The position numbers and the translations under genes were made by a program. From a virus (taxonomy: Duplodnaviria; Heunggongvirae; Uroviricota; Caudoviricetes), in the IMG/VR virus record IMGVR_UViG_2534681701_000009: 10,264 bases of DNA. The stretch is one strand, 5' to 3'. Positions 1,255 to 10,264 of this stretch are shown piece by piece. Within the stretch, counting starts at the first letter, position 1; each line of letters begins with the position of its first letter. The notes below the pieces were generated by a model, which was not told the DNA's origin, searched no databases, and saw only the letters and a program-made list of their open reading frames with translations.

Positions 1255-1368
1255 ATAAAACCGGGTGATGCAAAAGTAGCCATTTGATTCACAAGGCCAT
1301 TGACGCATCGCCCGGTTAGTTTTAACCTTGTCCACCGTGATTCACGTTCGTGAACATGTCCTTTCAGG

Positions 1369-1444
1369 GCCGATATAGCTCAGTTGGTAGAGCAGCGCAT
1401 TCGTAATGCGAAGGTCGTAGGTTCGACTCCTATTATCGGCACCA
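1369..1444 (+). tRNA. thrW: tRNA-Thr (anticodon CGU), 76 nt with encoded CCA
   Basis: GCCGATATAGCTCAGTTGGTAGAGCAGCGCATTCGTAATGCGAAGGTCGTAGGTTCGACTCCTATTATCGGCACCA: cloverleaf-compatible acceptor/T-arm pairing, GTTCGA T-loop, anticodon loop TTCGTAA giving anticodon CGT; position after proA fits thrW. Confidence 0.9.
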
Positions 1445-1461
1445 TTCAAACATCTCCCCAA

Positions 1462-1482
1462 GTCTACTAAAGTCTTTCAAAA
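1462..1482. repeat. 21-bp direct repeat copy 1 (GTCTACTAAAGTCTTTCAAAA), candidate integrase arm-type site in attL
   Basis: Near-identical copy at 1525..1545 (2 mismatches), both between the tRNA 3' end and the integrase start. Confidence 0.45.
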
Positions 1483-1524
1483 CCCCTTATAATCCGCGTA
1501 TTAAAGCCCCGCTCGTCTTTTGAC

Positions 1525-1545
1525 GTCTACTAAAGTCCCTCAAAA
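1525..1545. repeat. 21-bp direct repeat copy 2 (GTCTACTAAAGTCCCTCAAAA), candidate integrase arm-type site in attL
   Basis: Matches 1462..1482 at 19 of 21 positions; followed by tandem ATGGGGGTA at 1557..1565 and 1569..1577. Confidence 0.45.
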
Positions 1546-1609
1546 TCTACGGTCAGATGGGGGTACTTATGGGGGTATTTGCTGTTCGGTTTAGTGGAGG
1601 TACCCCCAA

Positions 1610-2824
1610 GTGAAACTCAATGCCCGTCAAATAGACACAGCCAAGCCAAAAGAGAAGGCTTACAAGCTGGCCGATGGTGGCGGTTTGTATCTCTTGGTAA
1701 AACCTAATGGAGGTAAATACTGGCGACTTAAATATCGTGTAGCTGGTAAAGAGAAGCTATTGGCACTAGGTGTTTATCCTGAGGTTACTCTAGCCGATGC
1801 TCGGGCAAAACGTGAAGATGCGAAAAGAGGTATCGCTGGTGGTATCGATCCGATGGAAGCGAAACGAGAGGAAAAGATTGCCCGGGAAACGCAGTTAAAC
1901 AACACCTTCAAAGATATTGCCATTGAGTGGCACAGCAGCAAATTAAAAAAATGGTCTGCTGGTTATGCTTCAGACATCCTCGAAGCCTTCAACAAAGATG
2001 TGTTCCCTTACATTGGCAAAAAAACCATCGCCGAAATCAAACCACTTGAACTTCTGAATGTGCTGCGTCGCATCGAGGGGCGCGGTGCTACAGAAAAAGC
2101 CAAAAAAGTGAGGCAGCGGTGCGGGGAAGTTTTCCGCTATGCAATAGTCACTGGTCGCGCAGAGTATAACCCTGCACCAGACCTTACTAGCGCGATGCAA
2201 GGCCATGAATCTAATCATTACCCTTTCCTTACAGCCAAAGAATTACCTGATTTTTTCAAGGCATTGTCCAGTTACTCAGGAAGCGCATTGGTTGTTATGG
2301 CGGCTCGTCTACTGATTATCACCGGCTTGCGGACTGGCGAACTACGTGGCGCATTATGGGATGAAATTGATTTCAACAAGGCTATCTGGGAGATACCCGC
2401 TTCACGTATGAAAATGCGGCGGACTCATATTGTGCCATTGTCTGAGCAGGCTCTTTCGCTTATTGGGAAGATTAGAGAAATAACAGGCAATTACCCTCTT
2501 ATGTTTCCCGGGCGCAATGATCCAAGGAAAACAATGAGCGAGGCCAGCATAAACCAAGTGTTTAAGCGCATTGGCTACGCTGGACGTGTAACTGGTCATG
2601 GGTTCCGGCACACTATGAGTACGATTTTGCATGAGCAGGGCTATAACACCGCGTGGATAGAAACGCAGCTCGCTCACGTTGATAAGAACTCAATTCGTGG
2701 CACATACAACCATGCGCAATATCTGGATGGAAGGCGGGAGATGCTTCAATGGTATGCCGACTATATGGATTCTCTCGAGCATGGCGGAAATGTGGTGCAT
2801 ATGGTGTTTGAAAAACACGCATGA
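1610..2824 (+). CDS. int: P4-family tyrosine recombinase / integrase, 404 aa, GTG start
   Basis: ORF directly downstream of the tRNA; GGAGG 9 nt upstream of GTG; N-terminus KPKEKAYKLADGGGLYLLVKPNGGKYWRLKYR is typical of P4-type integrases; C-terminal HGFRHT ... RGTYNHAQY carries the recombinase His/Arg/Tyr catalytic motifs. Confidence 0.9.
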   Translation: MKLNARQIDTAKPKEKAYKLADGGGLYLLVKPNGGKYWRLKYRVAGKEKLLALGVYPEVTLADARAKREDAKRGIAGGIDPMEAKREEKIARETQLNNTFKDIAIEWHSSKLKKWSAGYASDILEAFNKDVFPYIGKKTIAEIKPLELLNVLRRIEGRGATEKAKKVRQRCGEVFRYAIVTGRAEYNPAPDLTSAMQGHESNHYPFLTAKELPDFFKALSSYSGSALVVMAARLLIITGLRTGELRGALWDEIDFNKAIWEIPASRMKMRRTHIVPLSEQALSLIGKIREITGNYPLMFPGRNDPRKTMSEASINQVFKRIGYAGRVTGHGFRHTMSTILHEQGYNTAWIETQLAHVDKNSIRGTYNHAQYLDGRREMLQWYADYMDSLEHGGNVVHMVFEKHA

Positions 2825-3292: not shown

Positions 3293-3796
3293 TTATTGAT
3301 AGTGTTTTATGTTCAGATAATGCCCGATGACTTTGTCATGCAGCTCCACCGATTTTGAGAACGACAGCGACTTCCGTCCCAGCCGTGCCAGGTGCTGCCT
3401 CAGATTCAGGTTATGCCGCTCAATTCGCTGCGTATATCGCTTGCTGATTACGTGCAGCTTTCCCTTCAGGCGGGATTCATACAGCGGCCAGCCATCCGTC
3501 ATCCATATCACCACGTCAAAGGGTGACAGCAGGCTCATAAGACGCCCCAGCGTCGCCATAGTGCGTTCACCGAATACGTGCGCAACAACCGTCTTCCGGA
3601 GCCTGTCATACGCGTAAAACAGCCAGCGCTGGCGCGATTTAGCCCCGACATAGCCCCACTGTTCGTCCATTTCCGCGCAGACGATGACGTCACTGCCCGG
3701 CTGTATGCGCGAGGTTACCGACTGCGGCCTGAGTTTTTTAAGTGACGTAAAATCGTGTTGAGGCCAACGCCCATAATGCGGGCTGTTGCCCGGCAT
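3293..3796 (-). CDS. insB: IS1 InsB reading frame (expressed as InsAB' fusion via -1 frameshift), 167 aa as listed
   Basis: Translation ...[96 protein letters not shown]... matches IS1 InsB; overlaps insA as in IS1. Confidence 0.9.
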
Positions 3797-3990
3797 CCAA
3801 CGCCATTCATGGCCATATCAATGATTTTCTGGTGCGTACCGGGTTGAGAAGCAGTGTAAGTGAACTGCAGTTGCCATGTTTTACGGCAGTGAGAGCAGAG
3901 ATAGCGCTGATGTCCGGCAGTGCTTTTGCCGTTACGCACCACCCCGTCAGTAGCTGAACAGGAGGGACAGCTGATAGAAACAGAAGCCAC
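3715..3990 (-). CDS. insA: IS1 InsA (transposition regulator / N-terminal part of InsAB' transposase), 91 aa
   Basis: Translation [43 protein letters not shown]... is the canonical IS1 InsA with its zinc-finger motif. Confidence 0.93.
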
Positions 3991-4676: not shown

Positions 4677-5510
4677 ATGAACATCGAAAAAAGCAGATTA
4701 ATTTCTGAGGCCGCCCCTCATCTGAACGCCTCTCTGGGCACAATTAACGGTAATGAATTTGCCGCAATTGTCCCGGTTATTCCTGGTCATATCGGTGGGC
4801 GTGAAACCAATATTGTTAGCGCAAAAGCGTTACACAAAGCGTTGGGCGTGGGAAAAGACTTCTCTACATGGATCACTGATCGCATCTCTGAATATGACTT
4901 CACCATTGGGCACGATTACTCAGTCCATAAAACAATTTCCCCAAATTTGGGGAAAAGCCCGAATGGCGCGGCTTACAGCAAGATAAAGCACTCTGGCAGA
5001 CCCGGCAAAGACTATCTGTTAAGTGTCGGAATGGCGAAAGAACTGGCAATGATCGAACGCAATGATCAGGGTCGCGCTATCCGCCGTTATTTCATCCAGT
5101 GCGAGGAAGAATTACAGCGTAGCGTGCCTGAAATCGCCGCCCGCTATCGTCGCCAGCTAAAAGCCCGTATCAGTGCCGCAAACAACTTTAAGCCAATGTG
5201 CGATGCGCTGAATATGGCCCGTGCCGAGATGGGTAAAACGACGCAGCAACACCACTACACAAACGAGAGCAATATGATTTCTCGTATCGTTCTTGGTGGG
5301 CTAACTGCTAAGCAGTGGGCGCGGATAAATGGCTATTCTGGCGAACCTCGCGACCATATGAACGCAGAACAGCTTGAGCACCTCTCATATCTCGAAAGCA
5401 CCAATATCACGTTAATTGATATGGGCATGGAATATGAGCAGCGCAAAGGAGAACTCACCCGCCTGTCGCAACGCTGGCTCGCTAAGCGTCTGGAGGCGGT
5501 CCATGTTTAA
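4677..5510 (+). CDS. phage antirepressor-like protein (AntA/Rha-type N-terminal region), 277 aa
   Basis: GGAG 8 nt upstream of ATG; motifs KDFSTWITDRISEYDF and LSVGMAKELAMIERNDQGRAIRRYFIQCEEEL resemble AntA/Rha-family antirepressor domains from memory. Confidence 0.7.
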   Translation: MNIEKSRLISEAAPHLNASLGTINGNEFAAIVPVIPGHIGGRETNIVSAKALHKALGVGKDFSTWITDRISEYDFTIGHDYSVHKTISPNLGKSPNGAAYSKIKHSGRPGKDYLLSVGMAKELAMIERNDQGRAIRRYFIQCEEELQRSVPEIAARYRRQLKARISAANNFKPMCDALNMARAEMGKTTQQHHYTNESNMISRIVLGGLTAKQWARINGYSGEPRDHMNAEQLEHLSYLESTNITLIDMGMEYEQRKGELTRLSQRWLAKRLEAVHV

Positions 5511-5685
5511 GCCGACAGGAACACCACAACCTCAAAAACGCTACAAAGATGCCCACGGAGCACTCGTTACTGTCGAAAGCGTGTCTCACAACCGAGTGAC
5601 GTTTTATCGCGACGGGTATCAATCGCCATGCGTACAACCGCTGGCGCGTTTCATGAAGGAGTTCGCGGAGGTTAACAAATGCTAA
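5503..5685 (+). CDS. small hypothetical protein, 60 aa (MFKPTGTPQ...)
   Basis: ATG embedded in the upstream stop (ATGTTTAA) suggests translational coupling; I prefer this start to the longer 5416 start in the ORF track, which overlaps the upstream gene by 95 nt. Confidence 0.5.
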   Translation: MFKPTGTPQPQKRYKDAHGALVTVESVSHNRVTFYRDGYQSPCVQPLARFMKEFAEVNKC

Positions 5686-6746
5686 CCGTCCAGAAGAAGA
5701 CATTTTCACTGGCTGGTATGTCGCCAAAATCCAGTAATATGACGGCAAAGTCAGGCATTAATACAGCAGATACAAGCAAAGTTTATCATTTGCTGGTGGT
5801 CGGAACGGATGCCTTAACCATATCAGAAATCTCGGGCGATGATATTAGCATTGAGAAGGTCAGCGGCTGCGCCAGAAAATTTCTGGTCGTAGATGATGTC
5901 TTCCGCTCGTGTAGTGACTCCACAAAAACATTCGTCCACGCGCGTGACGTTAACGAAATGAGCGCGATGTACTGTGCATCTGGTGCTTCCAATAGCGAGT
6001 TTTCGGAGTCCATAAAAAAGAGCTTGCCGTTATGCGGCAACACGGTTTATGGTTATAAGGCACCTCATAAAACGGGTGCCGGGATTGGCGTCCTGGTAAA
6101 TCGAATGGCGACATATGACGCGCCGAGCGTCTTTTTTTATGTCGTAGGTCTGACTCACCCATTTTTTGGGCGTTGGTGTATAATCCAGCGCCTTTGTCAA
6201 TCAATGGTGGCTCAGGCAGGGGCTTCTTCGGAAGCGCCGGTATCCATTCGAGCCGGTTACGCCAACCCTGTCTGGGCTACCACCAGCGAAATTGGCGTTT
6301 CCGGTGGTAGCGTTACATGCTATCGAATGGAGGCTGCCACATGCTGGCTACTACCCCTACCCAAAAACCGCAATTTATCTGGATTATCGCCGCAGTTCGC
6401 CGCGATTGCCCGACAATTACCGCCAAAATTCATCATATTGCTGCCGAGTCTGAACGCGATGCTCGCCGTTCTCTGGTGCGCGATCACGTCTGCTTTTTTG
6501 CTGGTCGTATCCGCATGGAGGTGGCTCATGATTAAAACCTACGATGTGCATATGGATCCCCTCGAACGCACAAGCCAGATCATCACACTGACAGAAGTGA
6601 TTAACGACATTCTGGTGAGCAACTCTCCCTCACGAGACGAAAGACTGAAGGCGTTACTCGCGATATTGGATCTCGCCGTTCGTGACGTTCATTTCCTGCT
6701 GGAAGGTGGCGAAATGCCAGGAAAAACGGGGGCAACCAATGAATAA
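5679..6746 (+). CDS. uncertain: 355-codon open frame; plausibly a real coupled gene at its 5' end (5679 to ~6116) but no in-frame stop before 6746
   Basis: ATG overlaps the upstream stop (ATGCTAA) with GAGG 7 nt upstream; frame stays open through a terminator-like hairpin, a promoter-like TATAAT, the structured region and the out-of-frame Icd-like ORF. Probably not one protein. Confidence 0.25.
6117..6138 (+). terminator. candidate rho-independent terminator (GACGC-GCCGA-GCGTC followed by T7)
   Basis: 5-bp GC-rich stem, 5-nt loop, immediately followed by TTTTTTT at 6132..6138; lies at the end of the alpA-to-orf60 coupled module. Confidence 0.4.
6150..6184 (+). promoter_or_regulatory. candidate sigma70 promoter, perfect -10 TATAAT at 6179..6184 with TG two bases upstream and an A/T-rich tract before it
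   Basis: GGTGTATAAT; no canonical -35 at 17-bp spacing, so assignment rests on the -10 and context (just downstream of the terminator, upstream of the structured region and icd-like gene). Confidence 0.4.
6199..6335 (+). ncRNA. candidate C4/CI-type antisense immunity RNA with flanking target sites (approximate bounds)
   Basis: 9-bp stem GCTACCACC (6276..6284) / GGTGGTAGC (6303..6311); TCCATTCGA (6243..6251) is complementary to TCGAATGGA (6323..6331), which overlaps the GGAGG ribosome-binding site of the icd-like ORF; a related ATCAATGGTGG motif sits upstream at 6199..6210. Confidence 0.4.
6341..6535 (+). CDS. Icd-like (host cell division inhibitor-like) small protein, 64 aa
   Basis: GGAGG 7 nt upstream of ATG; [22 protein letters not shown]... 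resembles Icd-like proteins of P1/P4-type immunity regions from memory; stop overlaps the next ATG. Confidence 0.55.
   Translation: MLATTPTQKPQFIWIIAAVRRDCPTITAKIHHIAAESERDARRSLVRDHVCFFAGRIRMEVAHD
6528..6746 (+). CDS. small hypothetical protein, 72 aa
   Basis: ATG overlaps the icd-like stop; first of a chain of coupled ORFs. Confidence 0.5.
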   Translation: MIKTYDVHMDPLERTSQIITLTEVINDILVSNSPSRDERLKALLAILDLAVRDVHFLLEGGEMPGKTGATNE

Positions 6747-6933
6747 CTCAATTAATACCCCTCGCCTTACGTCCGCACTTCAATTAATCGAGCAAGCAGC
6801 GGCTGTCCCGGTTGCTGTCAGTCTTTCGGCTGAAGAAATGGACGCTGCTGATGTCGTGGATGCGATTAAAGCGTGCTCATCTTTGGTTAACGATGCCCGT
6901 GACGAGCTGGTAATTCTTGGGGGTGAAAAATGA
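6739..6933 (+). CDS. small hypothetical protein, 64 aa ([10 protein letters not shown]...)
   Basis: Start embedded in upstream stop as ATGAATAA; preferred over the 6682 start in the ORF track. Confidence 0.5.
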   Translation: MNNSINTPRLTSALQLIEQAAAVPVAVSLSAEEMDAADVVDAIKACSSLVNDARDELVILGGEK

Positions 6934-7193
6934 ATATCAACTTAATTTATCGTCATCCGTGTGAGCTGGAAATTGAATCATTGCTGAGCCGTGAAGAGCC
7001 ATATCCAGACACATTCACTCTTGCAGATCGCACGACTGAACGGCTTACCAGAGCGCGCACAGGTCTGGTTCATGTGATGAATGAGATTCTTCCATCGGTG
7101 GGAGGGGAACAGGCGACAGTAATCACTAGCTGGCTACAAAAAGTTACCTCTCTGATAGATATCAGTTTAATCGATGCGGAGAGTGCGAAATGA
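6930..7193 (+). CDS. small hypothetical protein, 87 aa
   Basis: ATGA start/stop overlap with upstream ORF. Confidence 0.55.
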   Translation: MNINLIYRHPCELEIESLLSREEPYPDTFTLADRTTERLTRARTGLVHVMNEILPSVGGEQATVITSWLQKVTSLIDISLIDAESAK

Positions 7194-7411
7194 CCAACAT
7201 CCAGCTCATTGAAGCACAATGTCGCATCGAACAGGTTCAGACTGTTTTAGGGTTCTGGCTTGAAGGGGCCAGCCCCAGCAACAGAGACAAGTTAATGATT
7301 GGCGCGGTTATGTCACTGCTCAATGGCGTACCAGAAGCTATTCAGGAAGCGGACGAATTGTTGGGCAAATATGAGTTACAGAATCATTCAGGCGAGGCGA
7401 AACATGAATAA
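7190..7411 (+). CDS. small hypothetical protein, 73 aa
   Basis: ATGA start/stop overlap with upstream ORF. Confidence 0.55.
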   Translation: MTNIQLIEAQCRIEQVQTVLGFWLEGASPSNRDKLMIGAVMSLLNGVPEAIQEADELLGKYELQNHSGEAKHE

Positions 7412-8006
7412 TTTCTTAACTTTCCATGCAGAAGCAACGCCTGACGGCGTAAACATCATGTACCGCAGCAACGATGGCATGACAGAACGCGTTGAGACCG
7501 TCTCATATATTGATGCCGTAAATCGTCTGGATGCCGGGGATTATGACGATAAACCAGATGAAGGTATGTCAATACATCTCGCTATTGCCGATGGCGGCAA
7601 CCAGGGATATTTCGATTACACATCACAGCATAACGTCATTATGTGGAGATGGCTGATCGCAACAGTATTCATGCTGGAAATGAGAGAGGAAAACGGTACT
7701 GTCAGCATCATTGATGATACTGGCAATCCTTCCGAAGTGGCTGTTTATTCCAACGGCATCGTCGCCATGCCGCTGTATCCAGTAGCAGAGCGCCTCGCTA
7801 TGGCAAACAACATTGAGGGCGCGATGATAGAACGTTTTGGCATCGAGTCTGGCACAGAACGCGCCATCATTTTCTACAGAGCCATGATGGATGTGGAACA
7901 AGGAGCACTGACTCCATTTGGTCGTGAAACGCTTGCTGAACTTCACAACAGCTTTATAGCTGAACTGAATGAAAACGGCATGCCAGCGGAACCAGTGACG
8001 CACTGA
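7404..8006 (+). CDS. hypothetical protein, 200 aa (MNNFLTFHAEATPDG...)
   Basis: Start embedded in upstream stop as ATGAATAA, the same 8-nt junction as at 6739; preferred over the 7299 start, which would overlap the upstream ORF by 113 nt. Confidence 0.65.
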   Translation: MNNFLTFHAEATPDGVNIMYRSNDGMTERVETVSYIDAVNRLDAGDYDDKPDEGMSIHLAIADGGNQGYFDYTSQHNVIMWRWLIATVFMLEMREENGTVSIIDDTGNPSEVAVYSNGIVAMPLYPVAERLAMANNIEGAMIERFGIESGTERAIIFYRAMMDVEQGALTPFGRETLAELHNSFIAELNENGMPAEPVTH

Positions 8007-8016
8007 GGATGGAGCC

Positions 8017-8358
8017 ATGATTACTAAAAATTTCCGACTGAATGCGCTGGCAAATAAGTATGCGTCGGCACTGTATAACCACATTACCTCCACCAGCGGC
8101 GGGGACTATTTCATGGTTGATGCGGACGGCGAGGCCGTCCGTGTGGAAATCGTCAATGGAGTAAAAGGCGTTCGCAGCCTGATCGATAGCTACACACTGG
8201 CAGCCATGAAAGTGTTCTACCCGCAGTGGGAAACCGTGGGGATCGAGCTTCTTGAACGTTGCGTCACTAAGGACGGATTGACTGACGTCGGGCGTGAGAT
8301 ATGGCAAAGCATGGTTAATGACATGGGCGCAACTGTAGCGGGAGGTTCTCATGCGTGA
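8017..8358 (+). CDS. hypothetical protein, 113 aa
   Basis: GAGGATGGAG ribosome-binding site directly upstream of ATG; no family recognised. Confidence 0.65.
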   Translation: MITKNFRLNALANKYASALYNHITSTSGGDYFMVDADGEAVRVEIVNGVKGVRSLIDSYTLAAMKVFYPQWETVGIELLERCVTKDGLTDVGREIWQSMVNDMGATVAGGSHA

Positions 8359-8722
8359 AAATGCAGAAATGGCGCTTAGCTCCGCAATCGGAGAGCAGGT
8401 GGCAAAGATTGCTGGTGCTGTGTGGATTCATAACCTTCATTCTACTGGTGAAGAGAAAATGGTAATTCAGACGCCAGAGGGACGCACCATTACTACATCT
8501 CTGAAGCCGTCAGATGTTTGTGATCTGATTTGCGCATTCATGTACCCAGCAATGAGGACTGTCCACGGCGATAAGTGGAAACTTGCGACAACCGCTGAAT
8601 TTGATATGTGGCTAAACAATGATGGCATGCTGACTGATTACGGAATAACCAAGTGGCAGATGCTGGTTAGCCATATCGCAAACGCTATAGACCACGTGGG
8701 GTACGGTGATGCGAAACATTGA
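8351..8722 (+). CDS. hypothetical protein, 123 aa
   Basis: ATG overlaps upstream stop (ATGCGTGA); no family recognised. Confidence 0.65.
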   Translation: MRENAEMALSSAIGEQVAKIAGAVWIHNLHSTGEEKMVIQTPEGRTITTSLKPSDVCDLICAFMYPAMRTVHGDKWKLATTAEFDMWLNNDGMLTDYGITKWQMLVSHIANAIDHVGYGDAKH

Positions 8723-9336
8723 TCTTATCCGTCAGGTTATCAGTGCGTCTGAAAACAACTGGCCTCATGTGCTGGGCTGCCTGAACATAAATGTCCCTGA
8801 CTCTCCGCGCCGTCATGCTCCCTGCCCTGCATGTGGGGGCAAAGATCGATTCCGGTTCGATGACAACGGGCGCGGTAGCTTCATCTGTAATCAGTGCGGC
8901 GCTGGTGATGGGCTGGATTTAATTAAACGCGTAAATAACTGCGACACAACAGAGGCGGCGCTTCTTGCCGCTGATGTTCTGGGTATTGATTACCGGACAA
9001 CGGAAACACCAGAAGCCACCAGCCAGAAACGGGAACAACTGGAAACCGAGCGCCAGCGACGCGAACAGGAGCGCCTGAAAAGGGCAGAGAAGGACGAACA
9101 ACAAAGACGGGATACGTTTTCCCGTCAGTTTGATGACATGCGCAGAAAGGCTGTAAACGGCAAATCTGATTATCTGGTTGCGAAAGGGGTAGGTGATTTT
9201 ACATTCCCCGTGTTGCCCGATGGATCTCTGTTGCTGGCGCTGGTGGATAAATCCGGCGCAGTAACAGCAGCACAGACTATTACCTCACATGGTGAAAAAA
9301 GACTCCTGACAGGTTCAGCAAAGCGGGGGGCATATC
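8706..9336 (+). pseudogene. P4 alpha-type DNA primase, N-terminal ~210 codons only (zinc-binding domain and start of TOPRIM), truncated by IS186
   Basis: CPACGGKDRFRFDDNGRGSFICNQCGAGDGLDL is a primase zinc-ribbon motif; P4-type primase/helicases are ~700-800 aa, whereas this frame terminates a few codons inside IS186. Confidence 0.8.
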
Positions 9337-10264
9337 CATAAGCGCTAACTTAAGGGTTGTGGTATTACGCCTGATATGATTTAACGTGCCGATGAATTAC
9401 TCTCACGATAACTGGTCAGCAATTCTGGCCCATATTGGTAAGCCCGAAGAACTGGATACTTCGGCACGTAATGCCGGGGCTCTAACCCGCCGCCGCGAAA
9501 TTCGTGATGCTGCAACTCTGCTACGTCTGGGGCTGGCTTACGGCCCCGGGGGGATGTCATTACGTGAAGTCACTGCATGGGCTCAGCTCCATGACGTTGC
9601 AACATTATCTGACGTGGCTCTCCTGAAGCGGCTGCGGAATGCCGCCGACTGGTTTGGCATACTTGCCGCACAAACACTTGCTGTACGCGCCGCAGTTACG
9701 GGTTGTACAAGCGGAAAGAGATTGCGTCTTGTCGATGGAACAGCAATCAGTGCGCCCGGGGGCGGCAGCGCTGAATGGCGACTACATATGGGATATGATC
9801 CTCATACCTGTCAGTTCACTGATTTTGAGCTAACCGACAGCAGAGACGCTGAACGGCTGGACCGATTTGCGCAAACGGCAGACGAGATACGCATTGCTGA
9901 CCGGGGATTCGGTTCGCGTCCCGAATGTATCCGCTCACTTGCTTTTGGAGAAGCTGATTATATCGTCCGGGTTCACTGGCGAGGATTGCGCTGGTTAACT
10001 GCAGAAGGAATGCGCTTTGACATGATGGGTTTTCTGCGCGGGCTGGATTGCGGTAAGAACGGTGAAACCACTGTAATGATAGGCAATTCAGGTAATAAAA
10101 AAGCCGGAGCTCCCTTTCCGGCACGTCTCATTGCCGTATCACTTCCTCCCGAAAAAGCATTAATCAGTAAAACCCGACTGCTCAGCGAGAATCGTCGAAA
10201 AGGACGAGTAGTTCAGGCGGAAACGCTGGAAGCAGCGGGCCATGTGCTATTGCTAACATCATTA
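9337..10264 (+). mobile_element. IS186 (IS4 family), left end and first 928 bp; continues beyond window
   Basis: Begins CATAAGCGCTAACTTAAGGGTTG (IS186 terminal repeat as I recall it), inserted next to a GGGGGG run; contains the IS186 transposase N-terminus. Confidence 0.85.
9392..10264 (+). CDS. insL: IS186 transposase, N-terminal 291 codons; partial, open to the window end (not in the ORF track because no stop is reached)
   Basis: Translation MNYSHDNWSAILAHIGKPEELDTSARNAGALTRRREIRDAATLLRLGLAYGPGG... matches IS186 transposase from memory; frame is open for exactly 291 codons to base 10264. Confidence 0.85.
   Translation, partial: MNYSHDNWSAILAHIGKPEELDTSARNAGALTRRREIRDAATLLRLGLAYGPGGMSLREVTAWAQLHDVATLSDVALLKRLRNAADWFGILAAQTLAVRAAVTGCTSGKRLRLVDGTAISAPGGGSAEWRLHMGYDPHTCQFTDFELTDSRDAERLDRFAQTADEIRIADRGFGSRPECIRSLAFGEADYIVRVHWRGLRWLTAEGMRFDMMGFLRGLDCGKNGETTVMIGNSGNKKAGAPFPARLIAVSLPPEKALISKTRLLSENRRKGRVVQAETLEAAGHVLLLTSL

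Follow-up and report, generated by a model that had tools for sequence, protein, structure and literature searches.

An IsrK–C4 RNA module of the P1 and P4 immunity type upstream of an icd-like gene in a PICI or P4-like satellite island at thrW

The stretch of DNA analyzed here, hereafter the window, comprises 10,264 nucleotides of a record assigned to the Caudoviricetes (IMGVR_UViG_2534681701_000009). It carries, in order, proA, the tRNA gene thrW, a P4-type integrase gene, an IS1 copy, an ORF of 143 amino acids, a gene of the AntA/AntB antirepressor family, a DUF4222 gene, an RNA module, an icd-like gene, overlapping small ORFs and a gene for a primase with a zinc ribbon (Table 1). The RNA module is housed in a satellite island of the PICI or P4-like kind, which lies at thrW and has a P4-type integrase. 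As far as annotation goes, sid, psu and delta are absent both from intact copies of the island and from the ORFs of the window. The island is damaged by two insertion sequences, namely IS1 and the IS4-family element IS421, which starts at 9336, where homology to the intact island stops and the primase is cut off. The RNA region matches that of intact islands at 100% identity and its exact sequence occurs in more than 100 E. coli genomes, while related modules are present in 2908 of 5426 complete genomes, i.e., about half. What is described below is a system of an already-known kind, and its exact sequence is common in E. coli.

Table 1. Features of the window and their coordinates.
Feature	Position	Strand	Description
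tRNA-Thr(CGU)	1369..1444		Rfam match above threshold
P4-type integrase	1610..2824
IS1	3293..3990		Intact relatives have an HTH gene there
AntA/AntB antirepressor-family gene	4677..5510		Upstream of the RNA module
eta-like ORF	5679..6746	+	355 aa; runs through IsrK, C4, leader and icd
Candidate immunity-transcript promoter	6024..6053	+	-35 TTGCCG (6024..6029), 18-nt spacer, -10 TATGGT (6048..6053)
IsrK / seqA-like RNA	6060..6137	+	RF01394, 67.1 bits (threshold 50)
a1	6085..6091	+	TTGGCGT, in and adjoining the loop of IsrK hairpin 2
b1	6101..6108	+	TCGAATGG, IsrK linker
TATAAT	6179..6184	+	In the 62-nt IsrK-C4 spacer; possible internal promoter
C4 / CI-type antisense RNA	6200..6287	+	RF01695, 79.5 bits (threshold 45)
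b'	6243..6251	+	TCCATTCGA, loop of the second C4 hairpin
a'	6259..6265	+	ACGCCAA, single-stranded C4 junction
a2	6292..6298	+	TTGGCGT in the icd leader, complementary to a'
D1 leader strand	6303..6311	+	GGTGGTAGC; pairs with the 3' strand of the C4 closing stem
b2	6323..6331	+	TCGAATGGA, complementary to b', overlaps the Shine-Dalgarno
Shine-Dalgarno	6329..6333	+	GGAGG; ATG of the icd-like gene at 6341
Icd-like / Kil-like gene	6341..6535	+	64 aa; NCBIfam NF033153 phage_ICD_like, E = 3.7e-20
Co-oriented operon downstream of icd	6528..9341	+	Small overlapping ORFs, then primase
Primase with zinc ribbon	8706..9341	+	PF08273 Zn_Ribbon_Prim match

A scan of the whole window against Rfam gave three matches above threshold, namely C4, isrK and tRNA-Thr. 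The C4 match (E = 1e-14) runs over model positions 1-87 of 87, and the 88-nt segment has a folding energy of -47.2 kcal/mol (z = -5.8), a stability reached by none of 200 shuffled sequences. Its minimum-energy fold is the family structure, with a 17-bp closing stem, a UUCG hairpin, a second hairpin presenting b' in its loop and a single-stranded junction that contains a'. The mature RNA is expected at about 6205..6282; C4 and CI are RNase P substrates (PMC5499578). Perfect complementarity to the icd leader is found for both segments, over 9 nt for b':b2 and over 7 nt for a':a2, and a' forms a second set of complementarities, since its ACGCCAA can face TTGGCGT at both a2 and a1. The original prediction had named a C4 antisense RNA at this place, together with the pairing of b' with b2 across the GGAGG; both hold, the former at full length in the covariance model and in the predicted fold. 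Its related motif ATCAATGGTGG, placed at 6199..6210, does exist at 6200..6210, where it is the 5' end of C4 itself and no target-like motif. All the elements originally listed are there, with positions off by 1 nt at most.

The gene behind the leader had rightly been called Icd-like: the phage_ICD_like model that it matches is matched as well by P4 kil (65 aa) and by the icd of a P1-like phage; its ATG is at 6341, where about 6342 had been implied. Judging from the sequence, it is the predicted first gene under C4 control. A hairpin predicted within the leader by folding, D1:D2 (6305..6313 with 6317..6325), was considered, together with pairing of an anti-Shine-Dalgarno with the Shine-Dalgarno, as a conserved structure closing the ribosome-binding site. 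It is poorly supported in the family: 58% of the cells are paired for the hairpin and 67% overall, and the Shine-Dalgarno side is invariant.

Regarding the region upstream of C4, the window contains a complete IsrK, or seqA-like, RNA consisting of two 5' hairpins, a linker and a Rho-independent terminator at 6117..6137 (GACGC-GCCGA-GCGTC followed by T7). The terminator is also detected by a terminator scan and corresponds to the hairpin with T7 previously assigned to 6117..6138. IsrK holds a copy of each target, and three copies of the 8-mer TCGAATGG are found in 10 kb, all inside the same 230 nt, with 0.38 expected. A permissive scan with the c4-a1b1 model (RF03163) gave 17.9 bits at 6047..6099, overlapping IsrK and below the threshold of 46.7; in relatives this model scores 23.6-52.9, and the isrK model spans the same RNA. 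The locus has three parts, IsrK with a1b1, C4, and a2b2, where C4 and a single target had been proposed: these two are there, and what had been missed comprises the complete IsrK, the second b site within it, the a' set and the 5' end of C4.

The hexamers of the candidate promoter upstream of IsrK occupy the same positions in 20 of 20 modules, and the -10 of the window coincides with the TATAGT annotated as consensus -10 in the P4 record X02534, where it is that of PLE. The immunity transcript would accordingly start near 6060, promoter function being suggested by the motifs and their placement; with a score of 8/12, the candidate went unreported by a generic promoter scan. The TATAAT between IsrK and C4 is present where it had been seen, and was considered as a conserved C4 promoter and rejected: it has no acceptable -35, was not reported by the promoter scan and is shared by the closest relative (L003) alone. 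The IsrK-C4 spacer measures 10-25 nt in 14 of the 20 modules, which leaves no room for a promoter, so that these relatives must obtain C4 from transcripts that read through the IsrK terminator.

For comparison, 18 loci of 67-100% identity were fetched and 20 modules were aligned (alignment A1), including P4 (X02534), the P1-like RCS47, D6, SfV, a Salmonella phage, Stx phages, and islands of O157 and other E. coli. The IsrK-C4 tandem is present in 18 of the 18 fetched relatives, one Stx phage record already annotates "isrK" beside "C4 antisense RNA", and 17 of 20 modules have their ATG 56-57 nt beyond the end of C4. The complementary segments keep their positions and co-vary, a point that the original prediction had left to alignment with homologous elements. 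Within C4, pairing of the closing stem reaches 99.7%, and 9 of its 17 pairs show compensatory changes; for helices 4-6 the corresponding figures are 99.7-100% and 14 of 27 pairs. The helices of IsrK are 91-98% paired. Between C4 and the leader, a':a2 is 95-98% paired and b':b2 95.5% paired, with changes on both sides in 6/7 and 7/9 pairs, respectively. When the local helices are combined with a':a2 and b':b2, 97.8% of the cells are paired and 35 of 59 pairs have changed on both sides; none of 500 shuffles reaches the observed values and slid controls give 34-46%. The decoys behave in the same way, with 100% of cells paired for a1:a', 94.9% for b1:b' and double changes in 13 of the 15 pairs.

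Pairing is also specific to the individual module. In a matrix of C4 RNAs and targets, cognate combinations match at 15.25 of 16 positions and non-cognate ones at 9.85 of 16. The set comprises nine or more a types and numerous b types, among which the b type of the window is unique. The same heteroimmunity logic is familiar from P1 and P7, and the table of a and b types illustrates the coexistence of many immunity types that do not cross-react with one another. Duplex energies of C4 with the leader and with IsrK ignore intramolecular structure and were set aside.

The 9-bp stem that had been noticed between 6276..6284 and 6303..6311 is present and perfect, GCTACCACC pairing with GGTGGTAGC and leaving a2 in the loop. 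It is a conserved and co-varying alternative helix, 95.6% paired over the 20 modules and with double changes in 5 of its 9 pairs, and its equivalent in P4 is formed by GCTATCGCC and GGCGATAGC. At one position the leader follows the 3' strand of C4 by a full Watson-Crick change (A:U to G:C), while the 5' strand of C4 merely tolerates a wobble. Taken jointly, this helix, a1:a' and b1:b' have 96.6% of their cells paired and double changes in 18 of 24 pairs. In the accessible literature, no description of the alternative helix was found. It might, as a rather speculative possibility, belong to an undescribed cis switch in which the 3' strand of C4 pairs either with its own 5' strand or with D1. 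If so, the first pairing would yield mature C4 and the second would place a2 in a loop, where the alternative helix together with a':a2 would make up an H-type pseudoknot tying the antisense RNA to its target in cis; ribosomes in the eta-like frame, or the binding of IsrK, would select which helix forms.

With identity, structure, complementarity and co-variation observed as above, the segment 6024..6535 is very probably the RNA immunity module of an integrated satellite, the same system as PLE-seqA-cI-seqC-kil of P4 and a1b1-c4-a2b2-icd of P1. The proposal of a P1/P4-style RNA immunity switch is in this respect well founded, the C4 model, the phage_ICD_like gene and the co-varying targets all speaking for it. 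Processing, repression, termination and bypass can be pictured by analogy with P1, P4 and Gifsy-1. Transcription from the putative constitutive promoter would produce IsrK and end mostly at its own terminator, and C4 would be carried by the read-through RNA and possibly also by transcripts starting from the TATAAT. RNase P and 3' trimming would release a stable C4 of about 78 nt, of which a' and b' would pair with a2 and b2 of the leader, cover the GGAGG and block translation of the icd-like gene. The untranslated RNA would then be terminated, keeping the downstream small ORFs and the primase off and the island quiescent and immune. As in P1, P4 and Gifsy-1, IsrK may have an anti-antisense role: because it carries the decoy copies a1 and b1, it would compete for C4, in cis by trapping the read-through RNA and in trans, when in excess, by relieving repression. 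The eta-like ORF would be translated only from an upstream promoter, and on induction its ribosomes would cross the locus and bypass immunity.

It is conceivable, though on balance somewhat less probable than not, that the main output is transcription termination in the manner of P4, with the IsrK terminator as one of its sites, rather than a blocked ribosome-binding site as in P1. The island resembles P4 and PICIs more than P1 in its P4-type integrase, its primase operon and its first gene of kil size, and CI-dependent termination via seqA and seqC belongs to the P4 literature (PMC10111431). Against this, b2 lies over the GGAGG in 20 of 20 modules, and this favors occlusion of translation as the first step. 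For P1 as well as for P4, termination is reported, in work by Biere et al. of 1992 and Forti et al. of 1999, to follow the loss of translation, and occlusion and termination would therefore be successive steps and not alternatives.

A different question is whether the module, even if it is the immunity system proposed above, still has anything to regulate. IS1 replaces the region of an AlpA-like HTH gene and IS421 truncates the primase, so that the switch may no longer control replication; of the icd-to-primase operon originally envisaged, the primase does stand at the end, but in truncated form. The module could then be an intact-looking relic in a decaying island, its C4 regulating nothing useful in cis and providing at most cross-immunity against islands of the same a/b type. 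This is judged unlikely. The promoter, both RNAs, both sets of targets, the Shine-Dalgarno and the icd-like gene are all undamaged, and the products of Icd-like and Kil genes are cell-division inhibitors or killers in P1 and P4, for which reason repression by C4 should stay under selection even in a defective island. As to the identity of the RNA region with that of intact islands, it indicates that the decay is recent and carries no information on present function.

The RNA module is overlain by the eta-like ORF, which RefSeq/PGAP labels "ash family protein", the icd-like gene being omitted in some genomes. Its match to Pfam PF10554 (Phage_ASH; 105 bits against a cut-off of 26, E = 3e-30) covers aa 124-232, i.e., nt 6048..6374, and in every locus tested the match falls on residues obtained by conceptually translating IsrK, C4 and the leader, with P4, O157 islands, SfV and a Salmonella phage likewise matched over the RNA locus. 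The "Ash" family PF10554 may mostly reflect the RNA locus. PF10554 has been taken as an "epsilon" marker for P4-like satellites in one detection study (PMC8628076), whereas the true P4 epsilon protein belongs to another family, PF25738. In P4, the constitutive promoter, seqA and CI all lie within eta, Kil being a shortened form of Eta, and translation of Eta from the upstream late promoter prevents termination (summarized in PMC10111431). Between IsrK and the icd ATG, the eta-like frame is stop-free in 15 of 20 modules (1/20 and 0/20 for the other two frames), in keeping with this P4 picture, and the IsrK-to-C4 distance equals 2 mod 3 in 16 of 20. In P4 and 12 other modules the long ORF and kil or icd share one frame that no stop interrupts between them; in the window the eta-like ORF is offset by 2 nt from icd and hence in a different frame, with 137 nt between the two ATGs, and this out-of-phase long frame is a minor variant. 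Openness of the eta-like frame through icd was considered as a sign of selection and discarded: the same +1 frame is stop-free in 4 of 9 other icd-sized genes, and the openness in the window is therefore not informative.

That the region is simply the coding sequence of an "Ash family protein" with incidental RNA-like features, as the annotated 355-aa ORF, the PF10554 score and the preserved frame and spacing might suggest, is hardly credible and was rejected on the covariance-model scores, two models being far over threshold, and on the joint changes of a1/a'/a2 and b1/b'/b2 as reverse complements, which protein constraint cannot explain, to which are added the double compensatory changes in 35 of 59 base pairs, the experimental detection of C4/CI, IsrK and STnc1160 as RNAs in P1, P4 and Salmonella, the separate family of the true P4 epsilon, and the published P4 case, where both exist and eta is translated across embedded RNA genes (PMC10111431).

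As a discovery the immunity module carries little weight, for the IsrK-C4 (seqA-CI) system has already been published for P4, P1/P7, Gifsy-1 and Gram-negative PICIs; its value lies in a correction of annotation and in the conserved alternative helix. The RefSeq label "ash family protein" often drops the icd-like gene and both RNAs, and with one or more related modules in about half of complete genomes, the correct regulatory reading concerns a very common E. coli island.

Among the known systems, P4 shows the same order and geometry (in X02534, locus L002, isrK is at 1315..1392 and C4 at 1500..1587), the same promoter position, a 65-aa Kil as first gene, a long ORF over the RNAs, a primase operon downstream and a P4-type integrase by a tRNA gene. 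It differs in its a and b sequences (GUGAGAA and UUCACAGG, against UUGGCGU and UCGAAUGG in the window), in its IsrK-C4 spacer (107 nt against 62 nt) and in having kil in frame within eta, whereas the eta-like ORF of the window is out of frame with icd. The island of the window, unlike P4, is without annotated sid, psu and delta, and has the AntA/AntB and DUF4222 genes upstream. In immI of P1 and P7, a' and b' of C4 match a2 and b2 at the icd ribosome-binding site, with a1 and b1 upstream, as in the window, and the modules of the P1-like RCS47 and of D6 align with it column for column. However, the regulated cargo of P1 is Ant, encoded by a gene translationally coupled downstream of icd, while the window has small ORFs and the primase as cargo and its AntA/AntB gene upstream of the module; moreover, a stop codon closes the long frame in P1-like modules.

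In the isrK - orf45/STnc1160 - anrP region of Gifsy-1, IsrK likewise has its own terminator with read-through, and uses its middle hairpin for cis pairing with RNA further downstream (PMC4825925); the minimum-energy fold of 6060..6350 in the window contains the same a1b1:a'b' pairing. Gifsy-1 differs in being a lambdoid prophage, in its cargo, the anti-repressor-like AnrP that drives AntQ, and in that its C4 region is treated as orf45. C4 and isrK Rfam matches have previously been reported in Gram-negative PICIs (PMC10111431). PICIs of the EcCIMP1 type (GN-PICI/HE-PICI, "Bro zone") combine an integrase, an AlpA-type HTH protein, an antirepressor, an "Ash family protein" and a primase (PMC11773190); EcCIMP1 resembles the island of the window in gene content, and the copy in the window is interrupted by IS1 and IS421. 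Overall, the module would work like immI of P1 and the immunity system of P4 and is, by its context, closest to P4 and the Gram-negative PICIs.

The frame beginning at the conserved AUG of C4 (the antisense RNA) remains free of stops from IsrK, the RNA encoded upstream of it, to the ATG of the icd-like gene in 15 of the 20 modules considered (the one at window 6060..6343 plus its 19 relatives in L002-L019). Over this stretch, the remaining two frames are stop-free in 1/20 and 0/20 modules, respectively. Moreover, the distance from IsrK to C4 equals 2 modulo 3 in 16/20 modules, across seven different lengths. Both the stop-free frame and this phase are consistent with translation across the RNA genes in the manner of P4 eta. 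Within the window ORF 5679..6746, the match to PF10554 (Pfam) covers nt 6048..6374, and the "Ash protein family" of PF10554, like the "ash family protein" of RefSeq, is what results from conceptually translating IsrK, C4, and the leader. A survey of P4-like satellites took PF10554 as its "epsilon" marker (PMC8628076); the actual epsilon of P4 belongs to PF25738.

Regarding the RNA itself, the helix 6276..6284/6303..6311 pairs the 3' closing strand of C4 with the leader and co-varies across phage families. Combined with a':a2 (C4 segment and leader target), this alternative helix would create a cis pseudoknot of the H type. In the alignment of modules, the decoy b1 inside IsrK differs by one base from the leader target b2 in several cases (L003, L004, L012, L015, and L007b), so that a G-U wobble replaces a Watson-Crick pair with the C4 segment b'. 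C4 would then be bound a little more weakly by the decoy than by the true target.

A single prophage of E. coli R6 (NZ_CP107178) harbors two complete IsrK-C4 modules (L007 801..989 and 1457..1645), 650 nt apart and with differing a/b specificities, each followed by a Rha-family gene. In phage D6, a second C4-like match lies ~550 nt upstream of the main C4 (L009 1080..1159), with a sub-threshold score of 40.2 bits (threshold 45).

Features of the window island and of the P4 record
Feature	Record	Coordinates	Strand	Remarks
Integrase	window	1610..2824		
IS1	window	3293..3990	-	InsA and InsB ORFs; PF03811, PF12759, PF03400
IS421 copy (IS4-family)	window	~9337..10264		truncates TOPRIM/DUF927 primase gene
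P4 loci, PF10554 vs. epsilon	L002 (X02534)	1426..1839 and 1832..2119		

The island immediately follows tRNA-Thr(CGU) (thrW, 1369..1444), downstream of proA. Its 87-aa ORF (6930..7193, equivalent to 7031..7294 in the CP53 island copy, L020), for which a Pfam search returned no match, is named "nicotinic acetylcholine receptor subunit beta" by RefSeq in CP53, evidently an annotation error. In strain CRE1540 (L001), the same cargo module adjoins yicC instead, with a different integrase. Intact island copies carry an HTH (AlpA-like) gene at the site where the window has IS1, between the integrase and a 143-aa ORF, and their primase gene spans 2757 nt, whereas only 211 codons of it remain in the window.
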